Shown piece by piece: positions 33,760-61,223 of a stretch of DNA of 64,000 nt. Made by a program: the position numbers and the translations under genes. The stretch lies in the NCBI GenBank assembly GCA_010093815.1, contig ML996591.1; one strand, written 5' to 3'. Every line of letters begins with the position of its first letter. Position 1 is the stretch's first letter. The notes under the pieces are model-generated. The model saw only the letters and a list, made by a program, of their open reading frames with translations. It ran no database searches and had not been told where the DNA came from. The stretch is from Pseudovirgaria hyperparasitica. Taxonomy: Eukaryota.

Positions 33760-35069
33760 TCACAATACTGACAACCCTCCCATAAGCAGCATCGCAACGA
33801 AATACCCTGTACCCACCGACAAATATGTCCACAGGCCACTCGCAACTTCCAAGGCCGCTGCTCCGCCGCCCACACTGGTCTGTACTGGCAGCTCTTCAAC
33901 ACTCGTGTCCACAGGACTTGCACCCTCCGCTGGGCTCTTTACATCGGCGTGAAAGCTTTTTACATAGAACTTGACATTCTCTGCGGCGTAAAAAGTTTCA
34001 CTGCCAAACTGAACAGTACCCAGATACGTGTCCCAAGGCATGAAACCATACCTAGGGAGGAAATGCACTAACGGCGTGACATCACCGTAGAATTGCGTAA
34101 GTGGCGCTGTAGTGACCCATGAGAATACGGTCTGTCCGTTGCCGTTTGTGCCTGCATACAGCGTGCTATCGTTGTCGAGTATCAGCAAGAAATCATTCTC
34201 CGCGATGGACTTACAGGACATCGGCATTACTCACAACTCAGCATTCCCAACCGTCTGCACTATGGGCGTAACTCGCGCCTGATCCATACCTATCGGCTCG
34301 CTGGCCCTGCCAAATCGACCTAGCCACACCATGATCTCATAACGTTGCTTCGCCGGTGTCCTACTTCGGTTTGCGTCGGCATCGCAAAAGAGGTCCATAA
34401 CGACATTGGCTTCGATACCGATGGCATCGAGAGCATCAGCATTAGGAGAAGTAGTTGGGTCGTCGGATAAACCTTCAATGAGGGAAGAGGGCTGTTTGGA
34501 GGTATTAGGCTGCTCGTGAATGCGAGTTGAAGGAGGCCGACCTTCATTGCCCACTCAAGGGATAAATCCAGTTGGGAGAGATTCGCAATCGAGACGGGCA
34601 AGACGTCAGAGTTGAGCTGGATGTGCGGGTATGCATGCACTCGTGGTGGACTCGATTGCCACCTCCATTCTGCGATGAAGGCATTGCTTGTGTTGTCCCT
34701 GGATGGCTACAAGATGTCATCATTAGAAGTGGGTCCGGCGCCTCTTTGACATACATATAGACACGTCCAGCCAGATTCGTCCTATGGAGCTCATCAGAAG
34801 TCATACAGGACTGCATTTGGTCGTCCTTCAGAAAAGACATACTTGGTTCCAGGCATTGCTGTTGACTAACAGCTGATCAGCGTGTAGTATCAAGAGCAAA
34901 GTATGAGATGTAATGAGAACCGTTTCTGGTCATACTCACATGTGTAGTTGCCCTGTACACGCGCGTCATCTTTTCCACATAACTGTTGGGGCTGGTTCTG
35001 GGCGTCTACACGCCCGAGCAGCACGCGACATCCCAACAGATAGCTCCAAACGGCCTTGGTGTACCCCAT
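33760..35069 (-). CDS. Glycoside hydrolase family 12 (endo-beta-glucanase-like) with signal peptide and hydrophobic C-terminal tail
   Basis: Six exons assembled from GT-AG introns: MGYTKAVWSYLLGCRVLLGRVDA-QNQPQQLCG..NYTFNSNAWNQDESGWTCLY..FIAEWRW..VHAYPHIQL..ANVVMDLF..YEIMVWLGRFG..QTVFSWV..YLGTVQFGSETF. Both GH12 catalytic Glu contexts (YEIMVW, GSETF) are intact. Confidence 0.85.
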
Positions 35070-36235
35070 ACTGTGCTTTAGCAGTTGGGGGTTCCACGAA
35101 TATGGAAGAACAGAAAACCTCCGCAGAGATTGGAGAAGAGAGAGGCTTTCTATGAAGGTGGTCAGAGAGTGAGATCGTCACCTCCACCGGGCGTTACCTG
35201 CTTCTGTGGGTGGACGATTGGTGCACCATGATAAGAGACGTAGGTGGTATCTATTATGTTGGACGGCAGACATTTTACCGCCGTCAGCTCTCTGGCTACA
35301 CCGTGTGGTATACAGCACGTTGTGCCCCGTGACTAAGTGCGTAGGGTGAGGGCGAAACGTCTTCGATAAACCCAAAGATAAGCTGTCAAGAAGTCCTAAA
35401 ATTGCGCATGCGAATTGACACTATTGCACTAAGAATATATCTGCTTGATGAGCTGGCACGAAAAACGCGAGAGAGCGAGGATGCAGCACTGAATCTCCAG
35501 CCAATGCTATACCGTAATACAGGTGCACTACGGTACTACGGTGCAAGAAGGTCGCGAAGAGAGACCTCCTGGTAAATTTTCCACGCGGGACGTAGCTACG
35601 TTTGACCTGTAAGAGGGCTTGCTACCGGACTCGGGTCACTCGGGTCCAGTGCGAGGATGAATCGCATTCTCTGCGCTTCCAAGTTTACTTATATTGCATA
35701 GACTCGATATAATGCGGAACGTATTACCGTTGGATCACTGGTAGGGATCGACCAGCTGGGTCGGGAGTGGACCAAGTTGTGAACTCATGCACGACTTTAG
35801 GCCCACACTGGAATAGTGGACAATACATACGGAGGTGTTGTAGGGATAATATGATATACCTGAAATCTTCCAGGTGATGGCGACTGCGAGTAGACAGATT
35901 TTATTAGTGGAGATAATGGACGTGTAGCACTGTTAATGCAAGGATTGGGTATCTACAGGGTTGGAAAATTGTGAATTTCAGGAGCCACAGGGGTGACATC
36001 TACTGTGCAGATATTCATCCCTGTAGGGCGAGAATCACATTTATGCAGGTTGTGCCGAGTCTATCGTCCGAACCCTGGTACCTGGGAACGAGTACTACCT
36101 ATCATATTGTTTGCTCCTTACCCCAAAGATGTCGTGACGCGTTTGCCATGAGATAGAGCAGAACCCCCAAAAGTCAAACTATTACGGAATGAAGCAAACA
36201 ACGATTGAAATGCAGGGAAGGAAATCAGCGGTCTC

Positions 36236-38275
36236 CTAGCAGACCTCAAACCCTCGCAACCTAGATCTTTTGCCAACTTTGCCGACGCTCTCTACTCGGA
36301 AACCCATGTCTTCCAGGCCCTGTGCATCAAGAACACCACGTGCATCAAACACCCACCTGGGCATTTTCATGCCACGGCCAACTTCCTCCCACTTGAGGTT
36401 CTCACCAGGATAGCTCTTAAGTGCGCCAGGTGCCTTGTTACATTTGGTGCACTCTATATTACATTGAGGCTGGGAGCGAAATAGGGTCTGCTGCGCATTG
36501 AGGTCCCAGTCCTCCGGTAGGACTTGTACCTGGGCCAGACGGGCCAAAGCAGTGTGCACATAGCTCTCGACGGCTGCTGCAGAGCTGTCAGCCTGCGAGA
36601 GTGGTGGGTACCTGAATTGATCCCAATCCGTAAGTATGAGTACGGCGGAGGAGCCTGTGCACGCCGTATATGGGTCTGCGTGAACATTGATGGGCCCTTC
36701 TGGGGCAATGATGCCGCTTCCAGCTGCACCAAATAAGGCTTGAAGTTCTGTACATATGTCGGCAGGTGTACATCCAGGATCGTAGATAGCAATCTCCGCG
36801 GGTCTTTCCCGAAGTAGATGTTCAATGACCGAGATCGATTGTGATTCTCGAGTATCGGACGTATCTTTTTTGAAAGCATAGCCAAGTATAGCCAGCTTCT
36901 TACCGGTTAACGAACCATTGAGTGACTTGATGACTGTGACACAGGTAAGCTGATGCAGTGCCTCTCATCTTAGCGGGCGTTTACCTCGTTTGACCAAGCG
37001 TTCACATTGCCAAACATTGATATCCACGACAGACTTCCAGTATGCAGCCACCTCTGGCAGGTCAAGTGACTCAGCAAGGTATGACAAGCTTAGGATGTCT
37101 TTCTTGAAACACGATCCACCAAAACCCAAACCTGCGTGGAGGAATTTAGCACCAATGCGGTGATCCATTCCAATGGCACTAGCAATATCCGAGACGTCTG
37201 CCCCTGTCTTCTCGCATATCGCACTGACGGTATTGATGCTGCTAATCCTCTGTGCTAGCATGGCGTTCGCCACGAGCTTGGCAAGCTCTGATGACCAAAG
37301 GTGAACATTAAGGATCGACGCCTCGGGAACCCACGCATTATAGACTAGAGCTAGTCTGGCAGCGGCAGTAAGACCAGACGAGGTGTTACTTGAGCCTATC
37401 AGGACTCTTGATGGGTGTAGTAGGTCAGAGATAGCTGTACCCTCGGCGAGGAACTCCGGATTGGACAGAATCTCAAATGGTACCCCTGGGCGGTGGATAT
37501 CAAGCTTCAAATTTTATTAATGGCATGGTCAGAGGGCGAATTTGGGTTGCTTACAATATCTCTGATGACTTGGGCAGTCCTGCAAGGAACGGTACTCTTC
37601 TCAACAATGATGGCACCGGGTTTGGCTACCACAGCAATGGATCTCATAGCTGATTCAAAGATCGAAATATTGGTTGCTGCCCCAGCCCCCACACCGACCA
37701 ATTTCGTTGGCGTATTGACACTCAGGAAAATGATGTCCGCTTCACCAATTGGTTGTTCGCAGTCCGTAGAAAAGAAGAGATTTGGTGTACGCTCAGGAAA
37801 AGCCACACTTTCCTTGGCACTGCCACGTGCAAGGATTGTGGCATTTGTACCATCTCGCGCAACTCGTACAATGTCGTCCAATCCTGGTTCATGGATTGGT
37901 AAATGCTTAGACTGCCATCTGCTTATTCTTGAACTGTCCCTGTCGACCACGGTAACTTGAATTTGTGGATTGGAAAATGCCAGAACTGCAGCCGTTGGCC
38001 CACCTACATTCATAGTTAGTATTGTCATATGTGAGCTGAACTGTCTACTAACCTACGTATCCAGCACCAACAAAGCATATCTTGGTGACAGGGTCAAAAT
38101 CTGCCGCCCGAGCTCGAATTGGCCCACCAGATTCCGTCGATATTTTGGGTGACGCATTGTCGTCAGAGCCAGAGATCGATGTTGAGCTCGAAGTACGAGA
38201 CAAAGTAGGAGAGATCGAAGGCGACGCAGTCCCTGACTGTGAACAAGGTGTGGATGTACTGGACAAAGCGGACAT
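36236..38275 (-). CDS. UGD1: UDP-glucose 6-dehydrogenase
   Basis: [69 protein letters not shown], catalytic [10 protein letters not shown] and [15 protein letters not shown]. Three introns (38004-38052, about 37505-37554, about 36934-36984). Confidence 0.93.
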
Positions 38276-39996
38276 TTTGCCAGAATCTGACACAGGACCT
38301 GTAAGTACAATAAGAACAAAGTCCCTGTGATTGAACGATCTAGACAAAGGATATGCTGATTCAATTCCCAGGAGAAAGAAAGATTCGGAGCACTTCTTTA
38401 AATCTTGTAGGAGAATACAGTGCGCGGAGTCACCATTTGGATGAGCGTCTTGAGCGCTGTCACAAGCTATATGCCGCGAGATTGTACAAAGTCGAGCAGT
38501 GGCACCTAGTCTAGGCCACGCTCTATGGCTTTGTGGCAGAGGCGCCCGAGGCGGGATCACAAAGCGCAGAGTGATTCTCGCTTGGGCTGAGATGCTACAG
38601 ACTTACAGTGGCGAAAGCAATAGACTTCCAGTATACGTTGTAAAATGCTAGTCCTAGTGTTCCAATATGCAGTCTAGCGGACAGGGGCACCAAAGCCTCG
38701 CGAGAGCTGTGAGAGCTAATGCCGTTGATAAATCAAGGTATTAAAGCCTTTGAGCCAGGTGAGAGAGATCTGTGCATAGAGAAAGGAATTATATGCGGGC
38801 CAAGAGAGAACGATAAGGGAGTTGTAACATGTGTATTGACGACAAGGAAGGGCCAGAGCCGGTGGGGAAAAGGGAACAGGACAAAAAGTTACTGTTGATC
38901 AGGGTCCCATGCAGTCCGACTAGGTATGAAATGGCACCCTGCAGAAGATCTGCAGTCAATGAATGTCAAGATCGAATCTCGGTGCCGTAAGTAGTCTGAA
39001 CCCGCACACAGACCAGACACGAGAACATTATTCTGCAAGAGCCATTCGGCGTCCATCGCAGCGCCCATGAGGTCGGAAACAAGCCATGCAGCACGATCCC
39101 GAGTCGGAAGACGGTGATACGATGTCCCAGAGACCAATGTCCGTCACTTGAGTACACGGATGGCAGAAAGGCGCCTACTGTGCTCTCGAAGGGCGACAGG
39201 TAGGAAGCTTTGATAGCCTGATGCTCGTTATACGGCATCTAGGTCGGCAGGTCGATTGAGTTGGTACCGAAGCGACGCGTCAGTCGTCTTACTGATTGTA
39301 TTGTAGAGGTCTTTGAAGGTTGTGAATAGACTCGATGAGAGATGATAAGGAGTTGTTGAGATAAATTATAATGGGTCGACAGAAGCTACGTAAGTACTAG
39401 TTCCGATATTCCTGCACTATTCCAATATAGGCAAAGTCTGGATCGAAGCGGTTCTCGGCACGGCCCGCTGAAATATCGCCTATGCGCGTTCACCGTTGCA
39501 AAATCACAATATCACCACCCCTTCAATGATTCACTCTTAGGCGTGCCATGTCGCGTCATCGCCTTTATAGCCATAATAGAGCCACCCATGTTCCCCCTGT
39601 AAACTACCACGTGTGAGTGTTCGTGGAAAGCAAGTATGAAATCCCAGGCTACCGGTTTATCGGTCAATGGCTCGATGCAAGAGGCATCGCAGGTCGCCAC
39701 AATGCCACGCCCTGGGCTGAGCTTAGGCCTATCATTTCATTCGTCCTACCTGAGGAACAGGGTATACTCCCGAAGTGCACAGAAGATACCACGAGAAGCC
39801 TGCATATAGCATCCAGTGGGTTTTGTCGATATGGGGGTTGATATTCCAAGACGTTGCGCAGAAGCTGTGTCTAGGGCCGCCACAACAGCGCTGCAGAGGA
39901 CACTAAAACGACAGAAAAGTTCCGAAAGTCAACAGTGGATAGATCATTGTTGGTACAAAGTCTCGACTTCTCCGACTTCCTCCAACCCGACTGAGA

Positions 39997-42591
39997 ATGG
40001 CCCATCGGTCCCCGCCCGTCCACCGAACAAATATGACTTTCAGTGCGCATCAAGACCATGCGATCGCACATGTGGTAACTCGTCAGGATATCTCCAGGCG
40101 ACTTGCAGCACAGTCTTCAAATGAAGATTCTGGACTTGATGCCAATTTGCTCCAAACTCAACTTCGAGCTACAGAAGAAGGCCAAGGGTTGAAAGACATA
40201 GGCGTTCGGCGACATGCAAGTCTGACATCCAACCCTGTCAGCAACAATAGCAGTACACCTGAGCTAGTCTACGGGATCAGAACACCTTCAGATGATGGCA
40301 GTGTGAGTAATGGACCGTTCGATTCCCACGCGATAAATGCTGACGGCTCACGATCAGACATCACATATCCCTGGTGAATTCCATGCTAGCTTAAGGACTG
40401 GTCTGAGACAAGCACTAGATACACAGGATTCGAAACAGCTCCGAGCGTTTCCTAGGATACGTTACCCAAACGATCTCTCCGGGCGTGCCAGTGCCACGCC
40501 TAGCTATGACTCGCTCCAAATCCGTGTGCCCATATCGGCTTCAGAGCACTATGCGTTTCGCACTGTTAGCATCGTTGAGCGATCTGCATCCGCAAGGACG
40601 ACTCCAGATATCACAGAAGTTTACGAGGAATCGGAATCGGACGATAGATACATCCACCGTCATGTCACACGATCTCGAAGCTTCACCTCCCTCCCACGGC
40701 CCGCCCCTGCCCACCTCAGTCGTAGAAGTTCGTTGCCCGGCCTGACACGTAGTGCGAACGATGTATACACTATGTTCACTATCAAGACTCCGAGTCGGAC
40801 GCTTATTCGACCTTGTGTCGGTATACCTTTCTCCAATAAGCACTACCAGCAGGAGTCAGCACACGATGATATCGAAGCTAGTGCAACGGCGAATGCTGTA
40901 GCAGTCGAAAAGCAGGAGGAATATCCTTCTGCTGAAGGGAAGAAGACCACGCCAAACATCTTTCGACGCGCTAGGAATAACTTGATTGCTACGTACGCCC
41001 CTCGAGTGCCACCCCCTTTAATACTACCGAGCGGGCCAACCGACGTAGAGAAAGTCTCATATCTCAAGACGAACCGCCTCTTCTTGTACACGTTTGGATG
41101 TCTTTCTTTTCTCAGCTTGTCAGCTGGTATGTGGTTGTTCGTCGTCTCTTCGATTCCATTCTACTGGTTTGGTCTTATGGTCGTGCTGCTCCAATGCTAT
41201 CTCTTTGTCTCATATGCAGTTTCGATCTGTGGTAAAGATTGGGACTACGAGGCACACAAAAAGACACTAGAAGATCATCCAGTCACTCCAGAGACAGCAC
41301 CGACAGTCGACATTTATCTTCCGTGTTGTAAAGAGCCAATTGAGGTACTCGAAAACACATATAAGCATGTCACAGAGCTCATCTACCCACCCGATAAGCT
41401 GAAAGTGTATGTACTCGATGATGGGGCAGACGAGGCGGTCAAGACCCTAGCAGAGCAGTACGGCTTCACCTATATTCTGAGAGATGATAGACCGCGGCTA
41501 AAGAAAGCTGGGAATTTACGATGGGCTTTTGCTCGGACATCTGGCGACTTCTTCAATATTTATGATGCCGTAAGTAACATGGGATCTTACTAGCACATCA
41601 TTGGACCTCAACTGATATATTCCAGGACTTTTGCCCTCGGCCTGACTTCCTCATGGAGATCATCCCTGAACATATAGCCAATCCACGAGCAGCAATCATC
41701 CAGACACCTCAGTTCTTTCGCATCAAAGACGAGCAGACTTGGGTCGAGCAAGGTGCAGGTGCTGTACAGGAACTCTTCTACCGCGTCATCCAAGTCAATC
41801 GCAACCGCTTCGGTGCATCAATTTGTGTCGGATCCAACGCCGTTTACAGACGCCAAGCCCTCGTTGAAGTCGGCGGTACGGCCGAAATTGGGTTCTCGGA
41901 GGATGTACACACCGGATTCTACGCTTTGACACGCGGATGGCAGGTCAAGTACGTTCCTTTATGCCTGGCCTGTGGTATTTGCCCGGATACGCCGCGTGCA
42001 TTCTTCAGCCAGCAGATGCGATGGTGTATGGGTAGCACGACGCTGCTTACGAACCCAGACTTCTGGACGTCGCCGTTGAGTTTGATGCAGAAGATCTGCT
42101 ATTTGTCAGGTATGATGTACTACAGCGCCATTTCGTTGTCTATCTTCCTGAATCCGCTACCGGGTATCCTCATGATATGGGTACGGCCCGAGTATGTCCG
42201 GTACTACAATCTTGCTTTTGCCGTACCTAGTATTCTGTACTCGCTGCTTGCAATTCGAGTATGGGCAAAGGCATCATACGGACTGAATGTCCAGTTCGTC
42301 ATGATGATTCAGTCCTTTGCATACTTCACCGCTATCAAAGACCGACTATTCGGGAGAGCGTTGGCTTGGGTGCCTAGTGGCGACACCAAGGCTCACAAGA
42401 ATAACAAGTACAGAAATATGCGTATCATGGCGTGGGTGTGGATGTGCAGTGCGAGCGGAGCGCTGATTGCCGGGACGACATATCAAGTGCTGCGTGGCAT
42501 GAAGTGGTATGATTGTTTCCCCGTGTTGTGTTTGACGGCCTTTAACTTCTTTCTGGCGCATCGTTTTCTGCTTTGTCATGGAAAGCTGTGA
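39997..42591 (+). CDS. Processive GT2 glycosyltransferase, cellulose-synthase-like (CelA/BcsA-like)
   Basis: The D,D,D,QxxRW set is present: DIYLPCCKEP, VYVLDDG, KKAGNL, YDADF (split by intron 41570-41625), CVGSNAVYRR, SEDVHTG and QQMRW. There are two TM segments before and several after the catalytic domain. The first intron is 40303-40357, and there is a long Ser/Arg-rich N-terminal extension. Confidence 0.9.
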
Positions 42592-42829: not shown

Positions 42830-43120
42830 GTATATACCGGTCTTCCGTGTTAGTATATAGTAGTACTTACTCGCTATTATAGACTATAGAGAATATAAAA
42901 TATAGAAGATAGAAGTATAAGAGAGTATTATACTACCGAACTACCTATAATAGACTATTATATAATATATAATAATACTATACTATTGTTTAGGTATAGA
43001 CTAGTAGACTCGTATAAATTTACGAGTAGAATATAGTAACTTAAGTAGAATTATATGTAAAAAATTAGTAGTAAAAGTAGTTATATTAAATACTAATCTA
43101 TACTATCTAAGATATATACT
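42830..43120. repeat. RIP-degraded AT-rich repeat remnant, unclassified
   Basis: Abrupt switch to TpA-rich, CpA/TpG-depleted sequence. Confidence 0.6.
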
Positions 43121-44757
43121 TATAATAATAATAATATTATATAACTAGGTAGAGTAGTACTCTATAGGCCTATGCCTCCTCTAGTCTAAGCTACTATGTA
43201 AGAAGAAACCCCATAGAGAAAAACTTCCTTATATCTATAACTACATCTCGTTAAGCCTCTATTTCGTCTTAAGTATATAGCTATAGGGTACGCCTATTAG
43301 CCTATAGCCTATATTACCGTTATTTTACCCTTAGGTAGCACGTATAGGTGCGGAGGTTATTAGTTAAGGGCTACCCTTAACTAATAATCGGGGTTCTCCC
43401 GGGGTTCTTCTGGTATATATCGGGTTACTACCGGCGTATGCCGGGTCTCTTCCGGTATATATTTCCGGGTCCACTAGAATTAGAGGAGTGGTAGATATAT
43501 AATTATCTACCGGGCGACGTCCTTTAGGAACTTATTAAGCTATCGTACGATATCGGAGGTTCTTATCGTATAGATAAGCTTCTACCTTTACGTGTGAAGA
43601 TCGGGGCATATTACGAGATAGTAGCGTATTATGCCTCTCCGGCCACACGCCTTATACTATAGAGACACGTCGGGGACGCCTCTCTTATAGAGGTAGTATA
43701 GAAGTCCTATAGCGCCCGTTCGGGCTTAGAGGAGTATAGATGCCTAGGCCTTTATAAGCCCTTTATATATCCATTTACTTAGCTCCTTCTATAGTCCTTA
43801 GATCCACTCTAGGTACCTATCCTACTAGAAGGCCCACTAGGCCCGGAGTGTCTCTTTCTACTTATCTTAGATCCACGACCGTATACTTCGTCCGAGCTCT
43901 CGAAGGCTCTATTAGTCTAGAAGGGTATCTAGGTTATCCTTAATCTCTTATACTACTTAGTTCGAGTCTATTTCTATCGGGCACTTATACTATAGTCGAG
44001 TCCGGCCTATATATAAGAGTACTTAGTAGTATACGCTAACTCGCGCGCGTAGCGCGGCGAAGGTATATTCTACTTTTCCTACACGTTCCTATGCTTATTA
44101 TTTAGTAAAGTATACCACTCTCTATATCTAGTAGAAGTTATATATGCTTATAACGTCTGTCTCGCGTCGTAGTAGCACCGTGTTAGTAGCTTTATATACG
44201 CCTAATATAAGACGGAGTATACGGTTCTATATAGATTCGAGCTTTATTCGCCTAGTCTATATAAGGGCCGTATACTAGCACTCGTATCCGTACATGAAGG
44301 CGGGTCGTGCTATAGATATATATAGTTAGCGTGCCTTATCCCGGGCGGTTCCCTATATAGAGGCTGTAATCCGTCGTATAGCGGCTTCTACCTAGAGGGC
44401 CCTAGAAACGGCGTATGCTACCTATAGTCCCCATTTAAGCTTATTATCGATCATGACGCCGAGTGCGCGTATACTTTATATCGGCGGTTCGTTAAAGGCG
44501 TCTATTCTAGGGCGTCGCTCGCCTTCCCTAGTAGCCCATTTCCCACGGCGGTTAATAAAGTACATGAGTTAGTACTTTTCGGGGGCGAACTTTACTCCGT
44601 GGCGCTTTACCCATTAGACGCATCTCCCGTGGTCTTATTTAAGTTATCTATATGTTTGGCTAGTGTTATTATCGATGGCTAGAAGGTATATATCGTCTGC
44701 GTACCCTACTACCTCTATGTGTTACATTCCCTAGAGGAGGTCTACAGTGAAGAAGAG
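43121..44757 (-). mobile_element. Tad-like LINE copy 1, 5'-truncated, RIP-mutated
   Basis: Reverse complement of the 3' 1.6 kb of copies 2 and 3, from the RT GYADD region (GGGTACGCAGACGAT on the minus strand near 44700) to the (TAT)n tail at 43121-43140. Confidence 0.9.
43357..43387. repeat. 31-bp palindrome (3' site of LINE copy 1)
   Basis: TTATTAGTTAAGGG-CTA-CCCTTAACTAATAA, with perfect 14-bp arms. Confidence 0.95.
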
Positions 44758-46201
44758 GCCTCCAGTTCGAAGTCGGATGACTCCTACAGGTTCGACGTGC
44801 CCTATACCATCAGGCCCTACTCCTGTTTTTGCCTTATCTCATCCCCTTTAGGCTTATACCTCCAGCTCTACTAGAAGAGGGGCACGACGCCTCTTCTAGC
44901 TAGGAAACTACGAGGTTTGCTCCTTAAACTCATGTTACTAGCGTGCGTGCCTAGCGACACGTTCTGTCTCTTCATAAATCGACACGCGCATCCGTTCTCT
45001 CGGGCCATATAGTAGTCTCCCCGGCCAGGACGTGATCCCGCCTACTTCTAGGTATACTAAAGGTTAGAGCCCATTAAAGGGGTGAGGTCCTTAGAGCCAG
45101 CAGTTACTACTATATACCACGCCCCGCCTTTAAGCATGGCTACTATCTAGTTTTGCGTTACCCATGAGGATCTCTCTACGATAGGCCGACCGTGTCTTAT
45201 AGGCGAGCATTCTTTAAGTCCTATACGTGTACACTCGCGTGACGCGCCTAGGCGACTTAAGTATCCTCTACCTACTAACCCGACTTATTTCCACTACTTT
45301 TTAATAGGTCTCTATAGCCGCCTCTTGCCTATGTCCGTGTACTATTATCTATGTATACTAGCGCCCTACCTCCCACGGTAGACTATGACATCTCTTATAC
45401 GCGGGAGCCGCTCTATCTATCCTAGACCTAAGCGGTATCCCGTATCGAGCGAAAGGTCTTAATAGAGTCGCGCTACTGGTGGTCGCGCTAGGCGTCTTAA
45501 TAAACGTAGTTTAACACTATAGGAGAGTTAGCCTTAACAAGTTCATCCGCAGTAGTTTGTAGTTGCCCTCGACGTGATTTCTCGCTAATCCTTACGCACC
45601 CAGAGCCATTTAAGCCTCGAGGTGTCCTATCGCGCTACTAGGACTTCCGCTTTCTCTACCCACATGGTAAGGTAGATTCAGGCCTGCTTTTAACACAGCA
45701 GTAGCGCGTTAGGTGGTTTTCTTATCCCGGTATCCTCGTGGACTCCTCTTAACGCGTTAATTAAGAATAGGATGGAAGTATATGCTATCCCAGCTGGTTT
45801 ATTACGGTGTGGTCCCTGTAGAGTAACGCGTCGCGAAAACTCTACAACTACCCACCTAGCGACGACGAGGTCGCCATTAACGCCGCTCCGAACCTCTTGC
45901 TACCTCCGAAGAGGCATTGCCCAGCTACGACGACGTGGACGCGGTTCGTGAGACTTCGCAGCCAGATATATACTTATAGAGATCGACTTTATAAAACAAG
46001 TTAATAGTACTAAATTAATTATATCTAGCTATACTATAACCTTTTATACTTTATTCTTATAGAATATAAAAGATATTATAGATGGATATTTAATAAGAAT
46101 AGATATAAAAAGGACATAGATAGAGCTATATAATCTATCTAAGTTATTTTATTTCGTATTCTTATAAACTATAATTCTCGTCTCCGGCCGTTATTATTAT
46201 T
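44758..46201 (+). other. RIP-mutated gene-like or repeat segment of unknown family ending in a short (TTA)n run
   Basis: Not homologous to the LINE copies. A plus frame reads protein-like with mostly TAA/TAG stops (..FKPRGVLSRY*DFRFLYPHGKVDSGLLLTQQ*RVRWFSYPGILVDSS..). The segment has an AT-rich end and TTATTATTATT at 46191-46201. Confidence 0.4.
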
Positions 46202-46215
46202 CATATTCTCGTTAA

Positions 46216-48598
46216 TTAGGACTTTATGGGCGTGTCGCTTAGTGAGTCAACCTTGCCTGTCCAATAATTGATCCAGTTATAGATCTCACTATAGACCGTT
46301 AGAGCTACCTAGTAACAAAGGATAGGAAGACTTACGTATGCCAAACCAGGCTATTCTCCCGGTCCTGTACCCAGTGATTCTCATTTGGGAAGTTAAGAAA
46401 TCGACTTGGCACGCCCTTCTCCTGTAGCACGTTAAACAATGCGATGCCATCTCCAACAGGTAGTCTGTAGTCTAGATCGCTGTGCACGATGAAGTGTGGC
46501 GTTGAGAAGTTTGCGGCATGGTCGAGCGGATCAAACTTATTATAGTTCTGCATAGCATTAAGCCACGTCCCATTGTTGTCGTGGTTTATGAACCAAATTT
46601 CATCAGTCTGGTACTTGCACTCGCCACAGGCGGTCCCGTCGTGTGTCACGAGTGCCTTGAACTTGCGACCGAAGTCGTGACCTTGGATCCAGTTAGTCAT
46701 AAAGCCACCGTAAGAGGCGCCGGCCCCAATAGCGTTGTCGAAGTCAATATAGTCGTAATTGTCCTTCGCATAGTTATATGCGTTGATAAGATCCTCGTAC
46801 GGGTATGAGCCCCATTCGTTCGTAATGTTGTCGGTAAGCTTCTGGCCGAATGAGGTACTGCCGGTTGGATTAGGGCCAATGAGGACATAGCCCTGGTCAG
46901 CCCATGTTCGCAGGTTCCATCGTGTGCTCCAAGTGTTTCCGGTATAACCCTGCGGGCCACCGTGAATATAGAAAACCAGAGGATATTTCTCATCTGCAGA
47001 GAAGTTGGTCGGCTTGATTAGGACAGAGTGCTGGAGGTCACCTTGGCTGCCAGGGTACCAGAACTCCTCGAAGTCTTCCGGGTGAAGACCTGTGAGACCA
47101 GGATCAACATCATTCGCAGCAAAAAGGATTTCAATATGGGATTCCGGGGTCACGGTGTAGAAGTTACGCGAAGTCCAGACAGCGTTGGAGGAGACGAGTG
47201 CGTTACCATTGGGAAGGACATCGAAGTCGGTGATAGAAGTCTTACGGCTGCCAGTTACGTTCTTTGGTATAAAGCTGGCATCCGAATTGACAGGAATGAT
47301 GAAGAGCTTGGTAGCAGCAATGTAGTCGGCACCAACGTATAGGTGCTGACCATCAGGTCCCCATTTTAGAAGCCCAACACTCAAGTCCCAGTCAGGCGCA
47401 AGGTTCTTTATCTCACCAGAGTTAAGATCAGCTAGGTACAGCTTGATTCGGTCTGACTCATATGAGATACCGTCTTGCTGTCCATAAGCAACGTATCTGC
47501 CATCAGGAGAGAATCGTGGAGAAGATGAAGCACCCTTAGCAGTCTCGGGCGCGGGGCTGCCTGGACCATTGATAGCTTTGGGAGCTGACGAGCCATCGAA
47601 AGGGACCTGGTATATGTAGCTGGCAGTGTAGTTGGCCTTTGGAAGATGAGGAGCCTTGGTGAGGAAGACAACACTTGTGCCGTCAGGGCTGAGATCGAAA
47701 TCACCAGAGTCGCCGAACGGTTGAACAGGAGTCTCGGGGCGAGTGACGTTATACTCGAGGGCACTAATGAGATTCCGAACATCTCCTTTCTGTGCCCACG
47801 TGCCGTTGCTGTTGCCCAGAGTACCGGCAAACACGGCATAGCGCTCATGAGAGATGTATGCATCCCAATGGCGAATGTAGATGCTGTCATAATATCGAGC
47901 GGTACTATAAGGCTCGGTTGCGAGCTCCGAGTTGTAAGCACTGCCGTTGTTCGCATAGGCTAGCGAGGAAGCGATCCAGTTAATGTCGCCATTTTCGGTC
48001 TGCCTGGCCTTAAAGCCAGAGAACGGTGCTGCAAGGCTGGTGATGAAGGAACTTCTAAGGAGTCAGCCAGGACCTGGATAGGAGAGCTCTGTGCTCGATT
48101 CGCGTGGAGACTCACGGAGCAATAATTTCGGCGCCAATGTCGGCGGACCATATGGAGATACCACCAGAGACCTCATCATTCGTTCTGTTTATGTAGATGA
48201 CGCTAGTATCAGTGGGCCCAATCCACAGTACCTCTGAGACTTCACTGCCCCATGGGAGCTCAGAGATGTTTCCTGTGGCAACATGGAGTAAGTTCCAGGT
48301 AGTTGACGGCTCGTGCTCAGCCCAATCGTAGGTGGTAGAGGTGAACACAGCCAATTGCTATATATCTGTCAGGACGAGGAAGCTACCCAGCAGCTCGGTG
48401 GAGAAGGTACAGCAGTAGGATTGACAGTTGCAGCACTCCGGCGAGGAGCAGCAAGCATAAGCCTATAGAAAGAAAGTATGTCAATCAGAATATGAGCAAT
48501 AGTTGAGAGCGATAAACTCACTCGGGAGTGATGGCTCTTGCAAAGGGCAGGAGGGCCGCCACAAGGGCAGAGATAACTTTAGTCGGTGGGGACATCAT
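46216..48598 (-). CDS. DPP5: Secreted dipeptidyl-peptidase V (peptidase S9)
   Basis: Signal peptide MMSPPTKVISALVAALLPFARA-ITPE, IYIRHWD, PFGDSGDFDLSPDG and IHGGPQG. Catalytic Ser (GASYGG), Asp (DLDYRL) and His (NENHW) are present. Four introns, and the last exon ends EIYNWINYWTGKVDSLSDTPIKS*. Confidence 0.93.
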
Positions 48599-49469
48599 GG
48601 CTTATTGCTAACGGTAGCCTTCCACTTGTGAAGACTCGACGAATGCGGGACAGACAGCATATTTCCAATTCATGCTCTGCCGTTCCAAGGTATGCTTTAT
48701 AGCGGTCGGTCGACCACGACGGGATCTCGTAGCCGACCGTGGCGTCGACCTCGGGAAGGAATATCCATAGAGAAGGTCGTCCTCTAAGGTAACTTATCTT
48801 GATGGATTAATGCAGGGCCAGTCTAGGTACATCTACCTATCACCCAATCGCCTCCCACGTACGGCACTCGCTTCTACTACCCAGGGACCTGCCTAGCTAG
48901 GTAGGTAAGCACTGGGTAGCTTTCATGGTATACTATCAGGTAGCTATCATCCTAACGTCATGGAGGAGTTAGCTAAGATTACATGTAAGAAGTTAGATCT
49001 ACGTTAATAGATCTAAGAGTAGATATTATATAGGAAGAATATATTATTTCTTCTAAAGAATAGTATAAATTAATTGTTTCTAGTAGCTTACTTTATAATT
49101 TAATCTAAACTTTAACCTTTAATACTAATATTTATTAGATAAGATTTCTAAGATTAATAAATATTAAAATTAATAATAGAGAATCTATTTATTTATATAG
49201 TATTATATAAAAAACTTCTTTATACTCTAAGAGATAAAACTTCTTATACTCTAACGGACTAAACTAGTTAATTCGGGGTAAAACAGCGATTTACATACAT
49301 TAAACGATAGAGTACACCGAGTATAACAATCTCCGACATACATATATACGTATAGCGTATAATATACGACGATACTAATATATAGAGATACTATATATAT
49401 ACGCTTAAAGACTCTTTAATAATATAAGTATAGACTATATCTAATAAATACTAACACGCCGACCCCCTT

Positions 49470-49500
49470 TTATTAGTTAAGGGCTACCCTTAACTAATAA
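49470..49500. repeat. 31-bp palindrome (5' site of LINE copy 2)
   Basis: TTATTAGTTAAGGG-CTA-CCCTTAACTAATAA. Confidence 0.95.
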
Positions 49501-52500
49501 TTATAGCGGCCTTAGGCACTAATATACCCCGGCTTCTACCGGGTATACCCCTAATACTAGTATAGTAGAAACGGCTATATAGCGGTATATTCTAGAATAA
49601 TTAAACCCCCGTCTAATAAATAACGAATAACTAAGGGCGTATAATACTATAGATAATAGAGATAGAGGGGACTCTACCTAGAGAGACCCTCCCGGATAAG
49701 ATTAACTACTAGATAGTATATATAGAGAGGGAAGTTAAGAAGGGAGAAACGGCCCTACTTAGTATCTTCTAGAACCTTATCCGGAATATTAGAGAGCTTA
49801 CCGTAGGAGTAAAATAGGCGCTAGAATTAGACCCGGAATCTAGACTAGATCGTATAGAGGCCAGTCTATAGAGGATCTAGGAGGGCCTTACCTAGGGAAA
49901 ACGCCCTAGTACGTGGGTATAGATCGCCGCACCTATAAACGGAATAGCTATATTAGCTAAAATACTAAGGGCACCTATAGACGGGGTATATAGTATATAA
50001 GTTACTATCTAGAATAAAGAAGTACTCGTATAAGTCTAGTAAGCGTCCCTAAAGGATATTATAAATAAGATTAATAAATAGAAAGGGATATAGTTAAATA
50101 TAGTAGCCGCTAAACTCACCCTAGAAGGTATAGTACTAACTACTACTACTAATACAGCCTAGTAGACTATCTCGCGTAACCCAAACGTAATTAATAATAT
50201 CTTCCCTAGCGCGTCCGTCCGCGTAACCACGTATCTAATATAGATATATACTATCTCTATCCGAGAATACATTATTAGAGAAGATAATATTAAGTAAATA
50301 GAGTAATCTAACGAACCAAAGTACCCTAGAATTAAGATCGCGAAGGCGTGGTGGAAGAACGTCTAAGGGATTAAGATAAAATTAAAAAAGTACTCTACTA
50401 TAATAGTAGAGCTTAGGGACCCTACTCTCGTCTATAGAATAACATAGAAGGGCTTCCTAGCTAAAGGAGAGCTACTTACGGCGGAACTATAGAATAGAGC
50501 ATAGATAATAACGTAATACTTTAACTATTAGAGATATAGATATACTAGATAGAGGTACTCTTAGAAGACCGCCTATAGGTAGTATAAATAGGGCTATAAT
50601 ACTAAGGCATGCCCTTATAAGACGCAGAGCGATAAGACGCGAGATAGGGATACCGCTAAGTACTCTAACTACGACGGGAAATACCTATTCTAGTTAGTAA
50701 CGTATACGAAACGTAAGTAGGTCGTAGAATATATTAACGTGATAAAGATAAGAGGAGTAAGGTAGATATACTAAGCTATAAGGCCCTCGCTACCCTCGCC
50801 GCTATCCCTAACTTTACTTATAAATCTAGTAATTACCCCCTAAAGGGGAGAGGATAACGTGTAATAGTATACTATATAGAGAAAGATAGGCCGACCCTAG
50901 GGTATACTTAAAGCCGCTACCGCGCGAGGATAATCACGCCTTAGCGCCACTAATATATAGACTTAAACTTTCCCTAGCACCTAATAAGGGTATAAGATAT
51001 ACTTATTATTATATAGGTAAACGTATAATATAAATAAGAAAACTAAGTAACGCTTCTAGAAGAAATAGGAGCCGTAATAATAGCTATCTAGGAACTATAT
51101 AAATACTACTAAACTAATAAGCTAATAATATACCTAGGATACTATACTATCCACCCCATAGGCCCGGATAGAAGAGTTATATTTTATATATATAAGTCGA
51201 TCCCGCTCTTAGAATAGTCTTATACCGAATATAATAACCTCTAGATAATACTATATCTCTAGATAAGTATAGGGCCTATCTACATCTATAATATCTATAA
51301 TTAATAGTAATTACTTATACTAGACGATATACTAGAGGGCACCACGACGCCGGGATAATATATCCTCCTAGGTAACTTTAATCTCTACTATAGATAGTAG
51401 GGAGGCCTAGCCGTCGTAAGAGAAGAACTTAGAGTAAGGGAACTATATATACGGTACCATGACTTTCTATACCTCCTTATACCTATAGGGTAGATTACCT
51501 AGAGAAAATATAAATAGAATAAGGACGGGTCTACGCTCGACCTTACCCTTACTACTAAGTACATTAGCTATAGAGTATAGTACTACCGCCCGAGCCGGAT
51601 ATAGACGGACTCCGACTACGAATATATAGAAACCATAATAGACGTCTCTACTCTTAATAAATAACGTAGAAAATAGCTATAGAAGGATACTAATTAGGAT
51701 AAATACCTAGAGGACCTAGAATCGGCGATTCTAGACCCCTCTATAGTCGACGTATCTAACGGCCTAGCTATAGATAAGGCCGTATAAGTCCTCCTTTAAG
51801 TATACTAAGCCACGAGAGATAAATACGTGCTATACTAAATATATAGACCTCTAGAAGCAAGGGGTATACCTTAAATACGAGAGTATAGAAGAGACGCCCG
51901 TAGACTATATATATATATATACTATATCCGGACGACTAAGGCGTGGGAAGAGTAGAAGAAAGTAGTACGATATCGTAATAGGGCCCTCTATAATAAATAA
52001 CGAAAGTAATAGCGTATAATTACCGATAAATATATATAGTAAGCCGTAGAGCTATAGCGTATAGTAAAGTAGGCTAAGGGTATAGACGCGCCGATACCGC
52101 CGCTACTAATGCCTCCCCTAATATACTAAGAGAGAATATACTCTATAAGTCTAGAGAAGATGGAGATCTTACGTAAAGTTATATTCCCCCTCCCGGAGCT
52201 AGTAGACCTATTAGATATTAATAATACTAAATATCTAGATATAATTAATATCCCCTAAGAGGTTATCGAGGAGAATATACTTAACGCCGTTAAAGTACTC
52301 CTAAATAATAAGGTACCTAGACCGGATAGGATACCGAATAGGTGCCTTAAACGTACTATACTAGCTACCCTACCACTTATTAGTTATATATTTTAAGTAT
52401 ATATTAAGAACGGATACTACCTCTAAAGCTTCCGGGCTATCTATACTATTATACTTCTAAAACTAGGGAAGAACTCTAACTCCCTAAAAGAATGGAGGCT

Positions 52501-54279
52501 AATTACCCTCCTCTTCTATCTTAGGAAGATACTAGAGACTATAATTACGAAGAAGATAAGCGCCGTAGTATAGAAATATAACCTCCTCCTAGTAAACTAG
52601 AAGGCGAAGGCTAGAAGCTCTCTAATTACTACTATCTAATATATTCTCGAAGTTATCTAGACCGTATAGAAGTAGGGACGTATAGTAACGCTACTCTCTC
52701 TTAACATGGCCGGCGCATTCGATAAAGTAAACCATATAAGACTTATCTATAACTTATAGAAGAGGCGTATACCCGCGTAGATTACGTGGTTTATATAGTC
52801 CTTCCTTACTAAAAGAGTTACCTAGATATATATCTCTAGATATCGAAGTAAGTATAAGAAGACGGCTTACGGCATCCTATAAGGAAGTACTATCTCCCTA
52901 ATTCTATTTCTCTTCTTTACTATAGACCTTCTCTAGAGAATATAACGTATAGAGGTAGTAGGGTACGTAGATAATATATACCTTCTAGCTATTAATAATA
53001 ATACTAGCTAAATATATAGATAACTCGAATAAGACTACGGGAGATATATCTAATAGGTAAAGCGCTATAGAGTAAAGTTCGCCCCTAAAAAGTACTAACT
53101 TATATACTTTATTAACTACTATAGGAAATAGACTACTAGGGAAGGTAAGCGATACTCTAGAATAGACGCCTTTAACGAACCGCCGATATAAAGTATACAC
53201 GTACTTAGCGTTATAATTAATAATAAGCTTAAATAGAGACCATAGGTAGTATATACCGTTTCTAGGGCCCTCTAGATAGAAGCCGCTATATAATAGATTA
53301 TAGCCTCTACGTGGGGAACCGCCTAGGATAAGGCACGCTAGCTATATATATCTATAGTATAACCCGCCTTTACGTACGGACACGAGTACTAGTATACGGC
53401 CCTTATATAGACTAGGCGAATAAAGCTCGAATCTATATAGGACCGTATACTCCGTCTTATATTAGGCGTATATAAAGCTACTAACACGGTACTACTACGA
53501 CGCGAGATAGACGTTATAAGTATATATAACTTCTACTAGATATAGAGGGTAGTATACTTTACTAAATAATAAGCATAGAAATATATAGGAAATATAGAAT
53601 ATACCTTCGCCGTACTACGTATACGAGTTAGTGTATACTACTAAGTACTCTTATATATAGGCCGGACTCGACTATAGTATAAGTACCTAATAGAAATAGA
53701 CTTAAACTAAGTAGTATAAGAGATTAAGGATAACCTAGATACCCTTCTAGACTAATAGAGCCTTTAAGAGCTCAGACAAAGCATACAGTCATAGATCTAA
53801 GATAAGTAGAAAGAGATACTCCGGGCCTAGTAGGCCTTCTAGTAGAATAGATATCTAGAGTAGATCTAAGAACTATAGAAGGAGCCGAGTAAATAGATAT
53901 ATAAAGGGCTTATAAAGGCCTAGGTATCTATACTTCTCTAAGCCCGAACGGGCGCTATAGAACTTCTATACTACCTCTATAAGAGAGGCGTCCCTAATAT
54001 ATCTCTATAGTATAAGGCGTGCGGCCGGAGAGGTATAATACGCTACTATCTTATAATATACCCCGATCTTTATACGTAAAGGTAGAAGCTTATCTATATA
54101 ATAAGAACCTCCGATATCGTACGATAGCTTAATAAGTACTCTAAGGATATTACCCGGTAGATAATTATATACCTACTACTCCTCTAATTCTAGTAGACCT
54201 AGAAATATATACTAGAAGAGACCCGGTATACGCTAGTAGTAACCCGATATATACCGGAAGAACCCCGGGAGAACTCCGA

Positions 54280-54310
54280 TTATTAGTTAAGAGTAGCCCT
54301 TAACTAATAA
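54280..54310. repeat. 31-bp palindrome (3' site of LINE copy 2)
   Basis: TTATTAGTTAAGAG-TAG-CCCTTAACTAATAA (one G>A change). Confidence 0.93.
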
Positions 54311-56131
54311 CCTCTATACCTATATATACTACCTAAGGGTAAAATAATAGTAATATAGACTATAGGCTAATAGGCGTACTCTATAGCTATATACTTAAGA
54401 CGAAATAGAGGTTTAATAAGATATAGTTATAGATATAAGGAAGTTTTTCCCTATAGGGTTTCTTCTTATATAATAGCTTAGACTAGAGGAGGCATAGGCC
54501 TATAGAGTACTACTCTACCTAGTTATATAATATTATTATTATTATACTCTAAGAGACTAAACTAGTTAATTTAGAGTAATATAGAGATCTATATATATTA
54601 ATTAATAGAGTATACTAAGTATAATAACCTCTAATATATATATATATATATAGTATATAGAATATAATAATACTAATATATAGAGATACTATATATATAT
54701 ACTTAATAACTCTTTAAAGATATAAGTATAGACTATAATAAATTACTAGCTAGAGCCATAGAAGGATACATAGACTCTAGCACGAGTAGCGTAAGAGGTA
54801 GTATAGTATATAGAAGAGGTGCCTATAATATAATAGGTAGCCTTAGGTAGTAACCTAAGGCTAAGATAGATACCTATAGGAAGAACTAATTATAGATACT
54901 TAGAATAGGTATTCTAAGTAATCTATATAGTAATTAGAAATAGAATATTAGTATTCTAAGTAATATACTAAATACTTAGAATAAGTATTTTAATTAGAGG
55001 ACCTTAGTAGAACTATATAGACCCTTTAGACCTAATCTCTAGAGATAGTTCTATAGTAATTAATTTAAACTTATACTAATATAATTACTACTTTACTTAC
55101 CTACTAGCTAGTTACTATTTATACTCTATTAATACTTACTATAAATCTACTTATACTCCTCTAAGTCTTCTAAGTACCTTTATCTTAAGGAAAGCTAGAA
55201 TACTCTATATAACGGACTACTTAAGGGATAGACCGTATCCTTATCTAGGAAGGTTTATTATAGTTTAATTACTCTACTTAGACTCTAAAATAAGTATTTA
55301 CGCTATCTATTTAAATGTAAAATAGTAAATAATAGATAATTCTTATCTTTGCGAACTACTCTATAAGTACTAACTATAGAGTAAGTTAGATATCTTATTA
55401 CTAAACTAGGGGAGTAAGTTATAGAGCTCTAGAGAGAAAACGTTAAACTTAGAAAAGCTAAAGAGAGCTTTAAAAGAAAAATCCTAGAATCTTTTAAAGG
55501 TAAGCGAAGTAAACTCTAAGGATTTCTAATATAGATTAGAATATACCTTTAGACCTATTAAATTTAGAACCTAGAAGAATAAGTTATATTTACCGCTAGA
55601 CTACTAAAGAGAGACGTACTCGCGTAGTTCGAGCCTTACTTAAGGGACTTTATAGAAAATAATCCGTAGAATTAATAGAATAATACTACTAAGATCTTTA
55701 AACATTTTAAAGAATTTAAGGAATATATTAAAACGATCTTTAGAGATATAGATAAATAAAGAATAGCTAAGAGACGAATCTAGTAAATAGTCTAGATAAA
55801 ATCTATATCTAACTACGCCTCTAAATTCTAATAAATCTCTAGTTAGCTAGAATAGAATAATAAACCTCTAATTCTCTAGTTCTATACTAGATTATATAGA
55901 ACTTCTCACACCCTAACGGACTAAACTAGTTAATTCGGGGCAAAACAGCGATTTATATACATTAAACGATAGAGTATACCGAGTATAATAACCTCCGATA
56001 TACGTATATACGTATAGTATATAATACGCGATAATACTAACGTGTAGAGATACTATATATATACGCTTAAAGATTCTTCGATAATATAAGTATAGACTAT
56101 ATCTAATAAACGCCGACACGCTAACCCCCTT

Positions 56132-56162
56132 TTATTAGTTAAGGGCTACCCTTAACTAATAA
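56132..56162. repeat. 31-bp palindrome (5' site of LINE copy 3)
   Basis: TTATTAGTTAAGGG-CTA-CCCTTAACTAATAA. Confidence 0.95.
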
Positions 56163-59100: not shown

Positions 59101-60941
59101 ATCTATACTATTATACTCCCGAAACTAGAGAAGAACTCTAACTCCCCAAAAGGATAGAGACTAATTACCCTCCTCTTCTATCTTAGAAAGATACTAGAGA
59201 CCACGATCGCGAAGAAGATAAGCGCCGTAGTATAGAAATATAACCTCCTTCTAGTAAACTAGAAGGCGAAGGCTAGAAGCTCTCTAATTACCGCTATCTA
59301 ATATATTCTTAAAGTTATCTAGACCGTATAGAAGTAGGGACGTATAGTAACGCTACTCTCCCTTAATATAGCCGGCGTATTCGATAAAGTAAACTACACG
59401 AGACTTATCTATAACTTATGGAAGAGGCGTATACCCGCGTAGATTACGCGGTTTATATAGTCCTTCCTCGCCAAAAGAGTTATCTAGATATATATCTCTA
59501 GATATTAAAGTAAGTACGAGAAGACGGCTTACGGTATTCTATAAGGAAGTACTATCTCCCTAATCCTATTTCTCTTCTTTACTATAGACCTTCTCTAGAG
59601 AATATAATATATAGAGGTAGTAGAGTACGTAGACGATATATACCTTCTAGCTATTAATAATAATACTAGCTAAATATATAGACGACTTAAATAAGACCAC
59701 GGGAGATGCGTCTAATAGATAAAGCGCTATAGAGTAAAGTTCACCCCCGAAAAGTACTAACTCATATACTTTATTAACTACTATAGGAAATAGACTACTA
59801 GGGAAGGCGAGTAATACTCTAGAATAGACGCCTTCGACGAACCGCCGATATAAAGTATATATATACTCGGCGTTATAATCGATAATAAGCTTAAATAGGG
59901 ACCATAGGTAGTATATACCGTTTCTAGGGCCCTCTAGATAGAAGCCGCTATATAATAGATTATAGCCTCTACGTAGGGAACCGCCCGGGATAAGGTACGC
60001 TAGCTATATATATCTATAGTACGACCCGCCTTTACGTACGGACACGAGTACTAGTATATAGCCCTTATATAGACTAGGCGAATAAAGCTTAAATCTATAT
60101 AGAACCGTATACTCCGTCTTATATTAGATATATATAAAGCTACTAATACGGTACTACTACGACGCGAGATAGATATTATAAGTATATATAACTTCTACTA
60201 GATATAGAGGGTGGTATACTTTACTAAATAATAAGTATAGGAACGTATAGAAAATATAGAATATACCTTCGCCGCGCTACGCGCGTAAGTTAGTATATAC
60301 TACTAAGTACTCTTATATATAGGCTAGACTTAACTACGGTATAAGTACCCGATAGAAATAGACTTAAACTAAGTAATATAAGAGATTAAGGATAACCTAG
60401 ATACCCTTCTAGACTAATAGAGTCTTTAAAAGCTTAAATAAAGTATATAGTTATAGATCTAAGATAAGTAGAAAGAGATACTCCGGGCCTAGTAGGCCTC
60501 CTAGTAGAATAGATATCTAGAGTAGATCCGAGAACCATAGAAGGAGCCGAGTAAATAGATATATAAAGGGCTTATAAAGGCCTAGATATCTATACTCCTC
60601 TAAGCCCGAACGGACGCTATAGAACTTCTATACTACCTCTATAAGAGAGGCGTCTCTAATATATCTCTATAGTATAAGGTGTGCGGCCGGAGAGGTATAA
60701 TACGTTACTATCTTATAATATACCCTAATCTTTACACGTAAAGGTAGAAGCTTATCTATATAATAAGAACCTCTAATATCGTATAATAGCTTAATAAGTA
60801 CCCTAAGAACGTCGCCCGGTAGATAATTATACACCTACTACTTCTCTAATTCTAGTAGACCTAGAAATATATATTAGAAGAGACCCGGTATACGCCGGTA
60901 GTAACCTAATATATACTAGAAGAACCCCGGGAGAACCCCGA

Positions 60942-60972
60942 TTATTAGTTAAGGGCAGCCCTTAACTAATAA
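60942..60972. repeat. 31-bp palindrome (3' site of LINE copy 3)
   Basis: TTATTAGTTAAGGG-CAG-CCCTTAACTAATAA. Confidence 0.95.
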
Positions 60973-61192
60973 CCTCCGTATCTATACGTACTACCTAAGG
61001 GTAAAATAATAGTAATATAGGCTATAGGCTAATAGGTATACTCTATAGCTATATACTTAAGACGAAATAGAGGTTTAACAAGATATAGTTATAGATATAA
61101 GGAAGTTTTTCCCTATAGGGTTTCTTCTTATATAATAGCTTAGACTAGAGGAGGCATAGGCCTATAGAGTACTACTCTACCTAGTTATATAA

Positions 61193-61223
<31 letters not shown>

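Follow-up and report, generated by a model that had tools for sequence, protein, structure and literature searches.

Linked genes for a UDP-glucose dehydrogenase, a BcsA-like synthase and a GH12 enzyme in filamentous ascomycetes: a candidate module for an acidic polysaccharide

The galactosaminogalactan cluster is composed of a GT4 synthase, an epimerase, a deacetylase and a hydrolase, and its product is alpha-linked and cationic. In the type 3 capsule locus of pneumococci, the UDP-glucose 6-dehydrogenase (UGD) Cap3A and the synthase Cap3B set a precedent for the pairing of dehydrogenase and synthase (PMC2195575). Among fungi, a UNGD gene is clustered with a chitin-synthase-like (CHSL) gene of glycosyltransferase family GT2 and in part with a deacetylase gene; this cluster also occurs in algal viruses, its orientation varies and duplicate copies are unlinked (PMC4059230). 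Here we analyse a trio of adjacent genes coding for UGD, a GT2 synthase and a GH12 glycoside hydrolase in Pseudovirgaria hyperparasitica. The trio lies in a stretch of 64,000 nt (G000:C27:124001-188000, hereafter the window) of the 35.4-Mb assembly, and database proteins identical to window products carry the label of this species.

The trio is a real, conserved and apparently undescribed polysaccharide module. The accessible text of the UNGD-CHSL paper makes no mention of a UGD-GT2-GH12 trio (PMC4059230). No published description was found by full-text search either, most subscription journals being outside its reach. The initial annotation named no known genetic basis for such a polymer in ascomycetes. 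Walls of moulds such as Neurospora and Fusarium are reported to contain glucuronic acid, in the available part of the source without assignment to a polymer (10.64898/2026.02.21.705424). The trio is a concrete candidate pathway for a glucuronic acid polymer of mould walls.

Linkage of the trio and co-regulation of GT2 and UGD

A Pfam scan of window open reading frames (ORFs) detected GH12, UGD and GT2 exactly where, and on the strands on which, the initial annotation had placed them (Table 1). Its description of three contiguous, intact genes is supported by Pfam matches, by open gene models and by spliced contigs of UGD and GT2. The contigs come from two public runs (one sample, one study) for which 15 of 21 joints are listed. 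They skip every intron of UGD (three) and of GT2 (two); GH12 is covered by contigs of both runs, with its joints lying outside the 15 of 21 listed, and the reading frame of its six-exon model is free of internal stops. UGD (minus) and GT2 (plus) are divergent, as had been proposed, with 1.7 kb between their ATG codons. Since the contigs extend to 39349 on the UGD side and to 39493 on the GT2 side, most of this spacer is 5' leader. The short untranscribed gap at about 39350-39492, as delimited by contig extents that do not mark true start sites, is probably a shared bidirectional promoter of both genes.

Table 1. Features of the window
Feature	Position	Strand	Evidence
GH12 endo-beta-glucanase-like, 335 aa, six exons	33760..35069	-	Pfam PF01670; matches deposited P0388; PDB GH12 alignment; residue conservation
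GH12 exons	35069-34940, 34865-34843, 34781-34755, 34706-34542, 34491-34235, 34165-33760	-	
UDP-glucose 6-dehydrogenase (UGD), 629 aa, four exons, cluster-type paralogue	36236..38275	-	Pfam; solved-UGD match; splicing; tree
UGD exons	38275-38053, 38003-37555, 37504-36985, 36933-36236	-	
Divergent UGD/GT2 spacer, long 5' leaders on both sides	38276..39996	.	Extent of spliced contigs
Processive GT2, BcsA fold, about 827 aa, three exons	39997..42591	+	Pfam; spliced introns; model; AlphaFold; Foldseek; profile alignment
GT2 exons	39997-40302, 40358-41569, 41626-42591	+	
RIP-mutated repeat block, neighbour outside the cluster	43100..64000	.	Composite RIP index 1.25-1.74

Linkage of the trio is conserved through rearrangement and duplication. 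A second intact trio is present in the same genome (G000:C2:2162639-2169299; L018:1639-9299), spanning about 7 kb on a single strand in the order UGD, GT2, GH12. Its products are 61% (UGD), 64-73% (GT2) and 52% (GH12) identical to those of the window. With three UGD genes in 35 Mb, a UGD is expected by chance within 10 kb of a given gene in about 2 cases per 1000.

Co-location of orthologues had been put forward as a check, and for UGD and GT2 it is widespread. By consecutive or nearly consecutive accessions or locus tags, GT2 and UGD adjoin in six of the seven named species that have a cluster-type UGD and are found in both top-120 hit lists, which are no genome survey: Dothidotthia, Mollisia, Glonium, Zymoseptoria, Pseudocercospora eumusae and Elsinoe. 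In Neurospora, NCU08226 is the GT2 orthologue and NCU08228 a UGD; NCU08227 between them would be GH12, judging by six Sordariaceae in which GH12 and GT2 carry consecutive accessions. Such consecutive accessions were seen in eight named Sordariomycetes in total, the other two being Colletotrichum, and in Dothistroma GH12 adjoins UGD. Of 80 metagenome loci, 41 were taken as fungal and fall into 30 groups, eight of which have at least 5 kb of sequence on both sides. UGD is present in five of these eight, GH12 in four and GH5 instead of it in one. The trio occurs in Dothideomycetes, Leotiomycetes and Sordariomycetes. Five different complete orders of its genes were seen, and the flanks are unrelated. 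In fungal cluster loci, a scan of flanking ORFs (a selection of those of at least 150 aa) revealed no recurrent fourth gene, which leaves GT2 as the only candidate consumer of UDP-glucuronate in the cluster.

Eight of the top 120 GT2 models listed are merged with GH12. A true fusion was considered and rejected on the basis of protein models: in close relatives the two enzymes are encoded by distinct genes lying one after the other, and in P0028 the GH12 portion terminates with a hydrophobic tail, so these are more simply merged neighbours. GH12 homologues among longer proteins gave 0 matches in 791 candidates.

Further, the Neurospora GT2 and UGD genes respond together. One NUC-3 binding peak is assigned jointly to NCU08226, NCU08227 and NCU08228 (PMC12506109, supplementary tables). 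Upon nuc-3 deletion, GT2 and UGD are raised about 6-fold (log2 fold change +2.57 and +2.61, respectively), with unlinked UGD NCU04936 at -0.02 (PMC12506109). Over 18 samples, logarithmic transcript levels (transcripts per million) of GT2 and UGD correlate with r = 0.93, and within single experiments with 0.99, 0.88 and 1.00; correlations with NCU04936 within experiments are negative. Co-expression, another check suggested beforehand, was therefore observed for GT2 and UGD and is weaker for GH12 (values below). The study authors name the GT2 and UGD genes, with no mention of a cluster or polymer in the part of the preprint at hand (10.1101/2025.04.07.647663). A review treats NCU08226 as a GT2 without assignment whose level rises in perithecia (PMC6796803), and its deletion strain (FGSC17911) is viable with more biomass (PMC3364853). 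Phosphate sparing in the manner of teichuronic acid is not supported as a function, since all three Neurospora genes drop about 2-fold after 4 h without phosphate.

The three enzymes and their relatives

The UGD model corresponds to deposited protein P0217. It matches solved eukaryote-type UGDs with E 2e-135 and GDP-mannose dehydrogenase with 3e-25, all three domains are recognised by Pfam, and motifs EKST, NPEFL, ELAKL and GGSCF align with solved UGDs. By these sequence criteria it is classified as a true eukaryote-type UDP-glucose 6-dehydrogenase. The genome has three UGDs, located on C27 (window), C2 and C20. The third (L020:6511-7977 and L021:723-2727) is divergent from a GT4, a layout matching the published fungal pair of UGD and group-1 transferase. 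Hence all three UGDs of the genome adjoin a glycosyltransferase, GT2 on C27 and C2 and GT4 on C20. The published pair has been linked to an acidic glycolipid in Aspergillus fumigatus and is reported as rare in Dothideomycetes (PMC4059230). A quick tree of 52 rows places the C20 UGD in a 22-row clade (SH-aLRT 97) that includes none of the 15 GT2-neighbouring UGDs. The window UGD falls outside this clade as a cluster-type paralogue, which answers the tree-based question raised in the initial annotation.

The GT2 protein begins with a long low-complexity N-terminus. In its deposited model (P0001, 587 aa) the first exon is missing, and the start lies about 240 codons too far downstream (window 39997-40771); the extra 5' exon is backed by spliced contigs and the start codon is a predicted one. 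In P0001 numbering, the motifs D, DD, DAD, ED and QQMRW correspond to D180, D216-D217, D265/D267, E358-D359 and Q395-W399, and the D,D,D,QxxRW residues are invariant or nearly so in an alignment of 90 rows. The AlphaFold model (pLDDT 89.6) displays a GT-A domain joined to a multi-helix membrane channel, and the top eight Foldseek matches are all BcsA (TM 0.56-0.62). Chitin synthases appear only from the 37th rank. Hyaluronan synthases are absent from the 16 PDB profile matches, rank lower in Foldseek and share 12-15% structural identity. A PilZ domain was not detected by Pfam, and the score for the CelA family TIGR03030 is 195.7 as against a cut-off of 699. Profile alignment with BcsA reveals QTPQ in place of QTPH, SED in place of TED and WxPSGD in place of FxVTxK of the gating loop, QTPH, TED and FxVTxK being the BcsA motifs.

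The GH12 core is 100% identical to the deposited 335-aa protein P0388. According to alignment with PDB GH12 structures, its nucleophile is E167, the acid/base E257 and a further catalytic aspartate D148. Among cluster-type rows with a residue at the given position, these are conserved in 37 of 37, 36 of 36 and 37 of 37, respectively. The protein shares 30-52% identity with other cluster GH12s versus 21-26% with two ordinary GH12s of the genome. Its signal peptide is weak and its C-terminal tail is hydrophobic and GPI-like (tail hydropathy 1.9-2.3). A similar tail is found in 22 of 32 full-length relatives; the enzyme is for this reason probably surface-anchored and not freely secreted. The claim of a secreted GH12 on the UGD strand is thus retained as to strand and position and not as to free secretion.

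The wider GT2 family was placed in a FastTree phylogeny of 84 rows, from which no direction of transfer is claimed. Fungal GT2s, Agaricales and smut relatives included, are united in a single clade (99), with which viral sequences group (99) to the exclusion of bacteria. Viral relatives reach 49% identity. A nucleotide-sugar dehydrogenase, about 25-36% identical to fungal UGD, is found near GT2 in 4 of 31 viral loci. Among high-GC loci, GH26 is present in 16 of 66 and GT-C in 35 of 66, and other bacterial loci contain GH10 or GH16. A hydrolase partner is therefore common in the family and a UGD partner is not.

Several arrangements in this wider family deserve mention in their own right. Actinobacterial relatives (L136-L182) carry a recurring operon of GT2, GH26 and PMT_2-type GT-C. 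Phage-like contigs (L093, L049, L062, L199, L201, L210) combine a membrane GT2 with a short nucleotide-sugar dehydrogenase, some also with an epimerase, possibly for modification of the host surface by phage. In bacterial locus L087:7839-13872, UGD is accompanied by a polysaccharide deacetylase and by a GT2 fused to acyltransferase-3 and SGNH domains. L192, L209 and L212 derive from a single 288-kb viral record with three GT2 copies, and related loci have an adjacent GH16.

Candidate product and its alternatives

The three genes can be viewed as a synthase-dependent module by which filamentous ascomycetes would make a polysaccharide. It seems fairly probable that GT2 uses UDP-glucuronic acid and extrudes an acidic beta-glycan, more likely a copolymer of glucose and glucuronate, which is trimmed by anchored GH12. 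The dedicated UGD, by homology, would oxidise UDP-glucose to UDP-glucuronic acid. The membrane GT2, given its fold and motifs, may then polymerise a beta-linked chain and extrude it through its own channel as BcsA does. Linkage and co-regulation suggest that its donor would be UDP-glucuronic acid, alone or with UDP-glucose. GH12 could finally cut or transfer the chain at beta-1,4-glucosyl positions and so affect its length, release or attachment to the wall. Use of UDP-glucuronate by GT2 is argued from its position as the sole candidate consumer in the cluster, from dehydrogenase/synthase precedents and from the apparent lack of a UDP-xylose synthase: none was recognised among the eight top-scoring matches to short-chain dehydrogenases/reductases, and a motif for such enzymes gave 0 hits, in a genome search that was not exhaustive. 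The product is probably an acidic polymer with an accessory place in wall or matrix, dispensable for growth. Of the initial interpretation, the functional link between UGD and GT2 is well supported; glucuronic acid as a constituent of the polymer is its probable part.

Our tentative first choice for its composition is the copolymer of glucose and glucuronate, because the synthase is accompanied by a glucanase whose active site is canonical (in one locus by a GH5) rather than by a lyase. A pure glucuronan is more doubtful. In that case GT2 would be a beta-1,4-glucuronan synthase using UDP-glucuronate only, the missing synthase of a polyuronide that has long been reported from ascomycete walls, and its product the natural substrate for fungal PL20 lyases. 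A homologue of PL20 glucuronan lyase is encoded at G000:C6:1607022-1607693 (L238; match to 2zzj with E 3e-57), with no linkage to the clusters.

The main rival explanation, which we regard as unlikely, would have GT2 synthesise a neutral beta-glucan of cellulose-like or mixed-linkage type, trimmed by GH12, with UDP-glucuronate serving an unlinked transferase that decorates or primes it. The closest solved enzymes are indeed cellulose synthases, the neighbouring GH12, GH5, GH16 and GH26 act on neutral glycans, and some fungal and nearly all bacterial members have no adjacent UGD. This explanation, however, requires an unseen transferase that never joined the cluster in any of five gene orders although the precursor gene did, and the BcsA motifs QTPH and FxVTxK are altered in GT2. 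That GT2 is instead a membrane glucuronosyl transferase with a short product (glycolipid, oligosaccharide or protein glycan) and no long polymer appears improbable. Although the other fungal UGD pair yields an acidic glycolipid, and chlorovirus A473L-type proteins have been considered as candidates for glucosyl transfer to lipid or protein (PMC9614988), GT2 has a complete BcsA-like membrane domain with QxxRW and is accompanied by an endo-acting hydrolase in fungi, bacteria and viruses alike.

Slightly less credible still is a role of UDP-glucuronate as mere intermediate, with GT2 using UDP-xylose or UDP-galacturonic acid for synthesis of xylan, glucoxylan or galacturonan. Bacterial relatives adjoining GH10 and GH26, an epimerase added in some phage-like loci and an unlinked membrane C4-epimerase in the genome would fit it. 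On the contrary, no decarboxylase or epimerase occurs among scanned ORFs of fungal cluster loci, the search for UDP-xylose synthase described above speaks against it, and pathways to UDP-xylose and to UDP-galacturonic acid are thinly represented in these classes (PMC8092308). Least probable is adjacency by inheritance alone, without a common pathway. Every copy does stem from one ancestral arrangement and some loci have lost partners, but adjacency outlasted at least five rearrangements and a duplication of the whole cluster, always amid different flanks, and the tight co-regulation of GT2 and UGD holds even with GH12 apparently in between.

Several observations weigh against the proposed acidic polymer. 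The cluster copies share one origin and are hence not independent events. Septoria linicola is the one of the seven named species that is not counted among the adjacent pairs, and locus L063 gives only a partial UGD match. In three of the eight well-flanked fungal loci (L031, L044, L101) neither partner is found within 10 kb; one of them falls among Agaricales in the GT2 tree, a group that generally makes UDP-glucuronic acid (PMC8092308). NCU08227, the presumed GH12, responds weakly to nuc-3 deletion (log2 fold change +0.68, adjusted P 0.10; PMC12506109). The 15 cluster-labelled UGDs were not recovered as a single clade in the quick tree. Bacterial genome loci have UGD near GT2 in 1 of 80 cases and GH12 in none of 80, and actinobacterial relatives adjoin GH26 and GT-C rather than UGD and GH12. 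Since a UGD partner is not common across the family, the donor is not readable from family membership. Active-site changes relative to BcsA (Q295, F268, R319, R325) are shared by bacterial members and so are no markers of uronate use. As conserved basic residues of GT2 also occur in these members and no basic residue is newly conserved in cluster GH12 except for K-to-H at 84, uronate-specific residues were rejected as evidence. None of the features compared, in sequence or structure, determines which sugar nucleotide is the donor.

With respect to the C4-epimerase mentioned above, a single-exon frame of 787 codons at G000:C13:483244-485607 (L215:1111-3474) combines a membrane anchor with a C4-epimerase domain, whose nearest matches are enzymes of bacteria and phages, and ends in a long unassigned C-terminal part. 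It is possibly a Golgi nucleotide-sugar epimerase fusion.

Genomic surroundings and comparison with known systems

A block of repeats mutated by repeat-induced point mutation (RIP) begins about 500 bases past the GT2 stop. For its unit at 43.1-44.8 kb, the genome contains 35 or more additional matches longer than 1.2 kb. A non-RIP island at about 46-49 kb bears an intact single-exon peptidase S9 gene (46332-48062). The transposon border noted in the initial annotation is real as a neighbour and incidental as a cluster feature, in which role it was rejected: the cluster genes are unRIPped and the C2 copy lies in a gene-dense region without RIP signal over 28 kb. On the other side (26100-33580), genes for malate dehydrogenase, class II aldolase, a KH-domain protein and a short-chain reductase were found; none recurs beside other cluster copies examined.

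Because an NCU08226 deletion strain exists and the nuc-3 inducing background is published, the nature of the product is directly testable. If the proposal is true, it adds a new acidic surface polymer of fungi and a BcsA-fold enzyme with uronate donor. It would also provide a lead on the A473L family of chloroviruses and offer a short way of making an acidic beta-glycan.

Galactosaminogalactan, to which the trio had been likened, resembles it in the layout of precursor enzyme, synthase and dedicated hydrolase. The likeness does not extend to enzymes and product, as no GT4 synthase, epimerase or deacetylase is found in 40 window ORFs or in scanned flanks of fungal cluster loci. The UNGD-CHSL cluster also joins a nucleotide-sugar dehydrogenase, a GT2 and a modifying enzyme, in varied orientation, with duplicate copies and viral relatives; the trio differs from it by eukaryote-type UGD, BcsA-like GT2 and GH12. 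The A. fumigatus pair of UGD and group-1 glycosyltransferase similarly places UGD beside its consumer, as does the C20 UGD, but belongs to a separate UGD clade, contains GT4 in place of GT2 and has a lipid product.

Aspergillus Tft1/CelA is a fungal cellulose-synthase-like GT2 as well. Orthology with it is not supported for the window GT2, which scores 20 of 56 for the Tft1 switch motif and has no Aspergillus protein listed among its top 120 relatives; it is likely of another lineage. A more distant multi-intron GT2 of the genome (G000:C6:1461529; L022:4841-6900; 32% identity) scores 22-23 and is possibly the CelA/Tft1-type synthase. The available part of the source reports no gene cluster for AfTFT1 (10.64898/2026.09.17.752320).

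The chlorovirus CelA-like GT2 (A473L) groups with the fungal clade apart from bacteria. Unlike the fungal clusters, chlorovirus-like loci have no dehydrogenase within 5 kb, though all three viral records searched encode one, in one case beside GT2. In some chloroviruses UGD lies, by gene numbers, near a different GT2 family and not near the CelA-like one (PMC5408694), and adjacency of these two was rejected accordingly.

BcsA/BcsZ share the fold, D,D,D,QxxRW and a hydrolase beside the synthase with the trio. They are set apart by structural identity of about 20%, by the QTPQ, SED and gating-loop changes, by lack of PilZ and BcsB in the fungal system and by its UGD partner. Finally, type 3 capsule and hyaluronan operons likewise pair UGD with one processive dual-function GT2, whereas the fungal GT2 is BcsA-like and is accompanied by its own anchored GH12.

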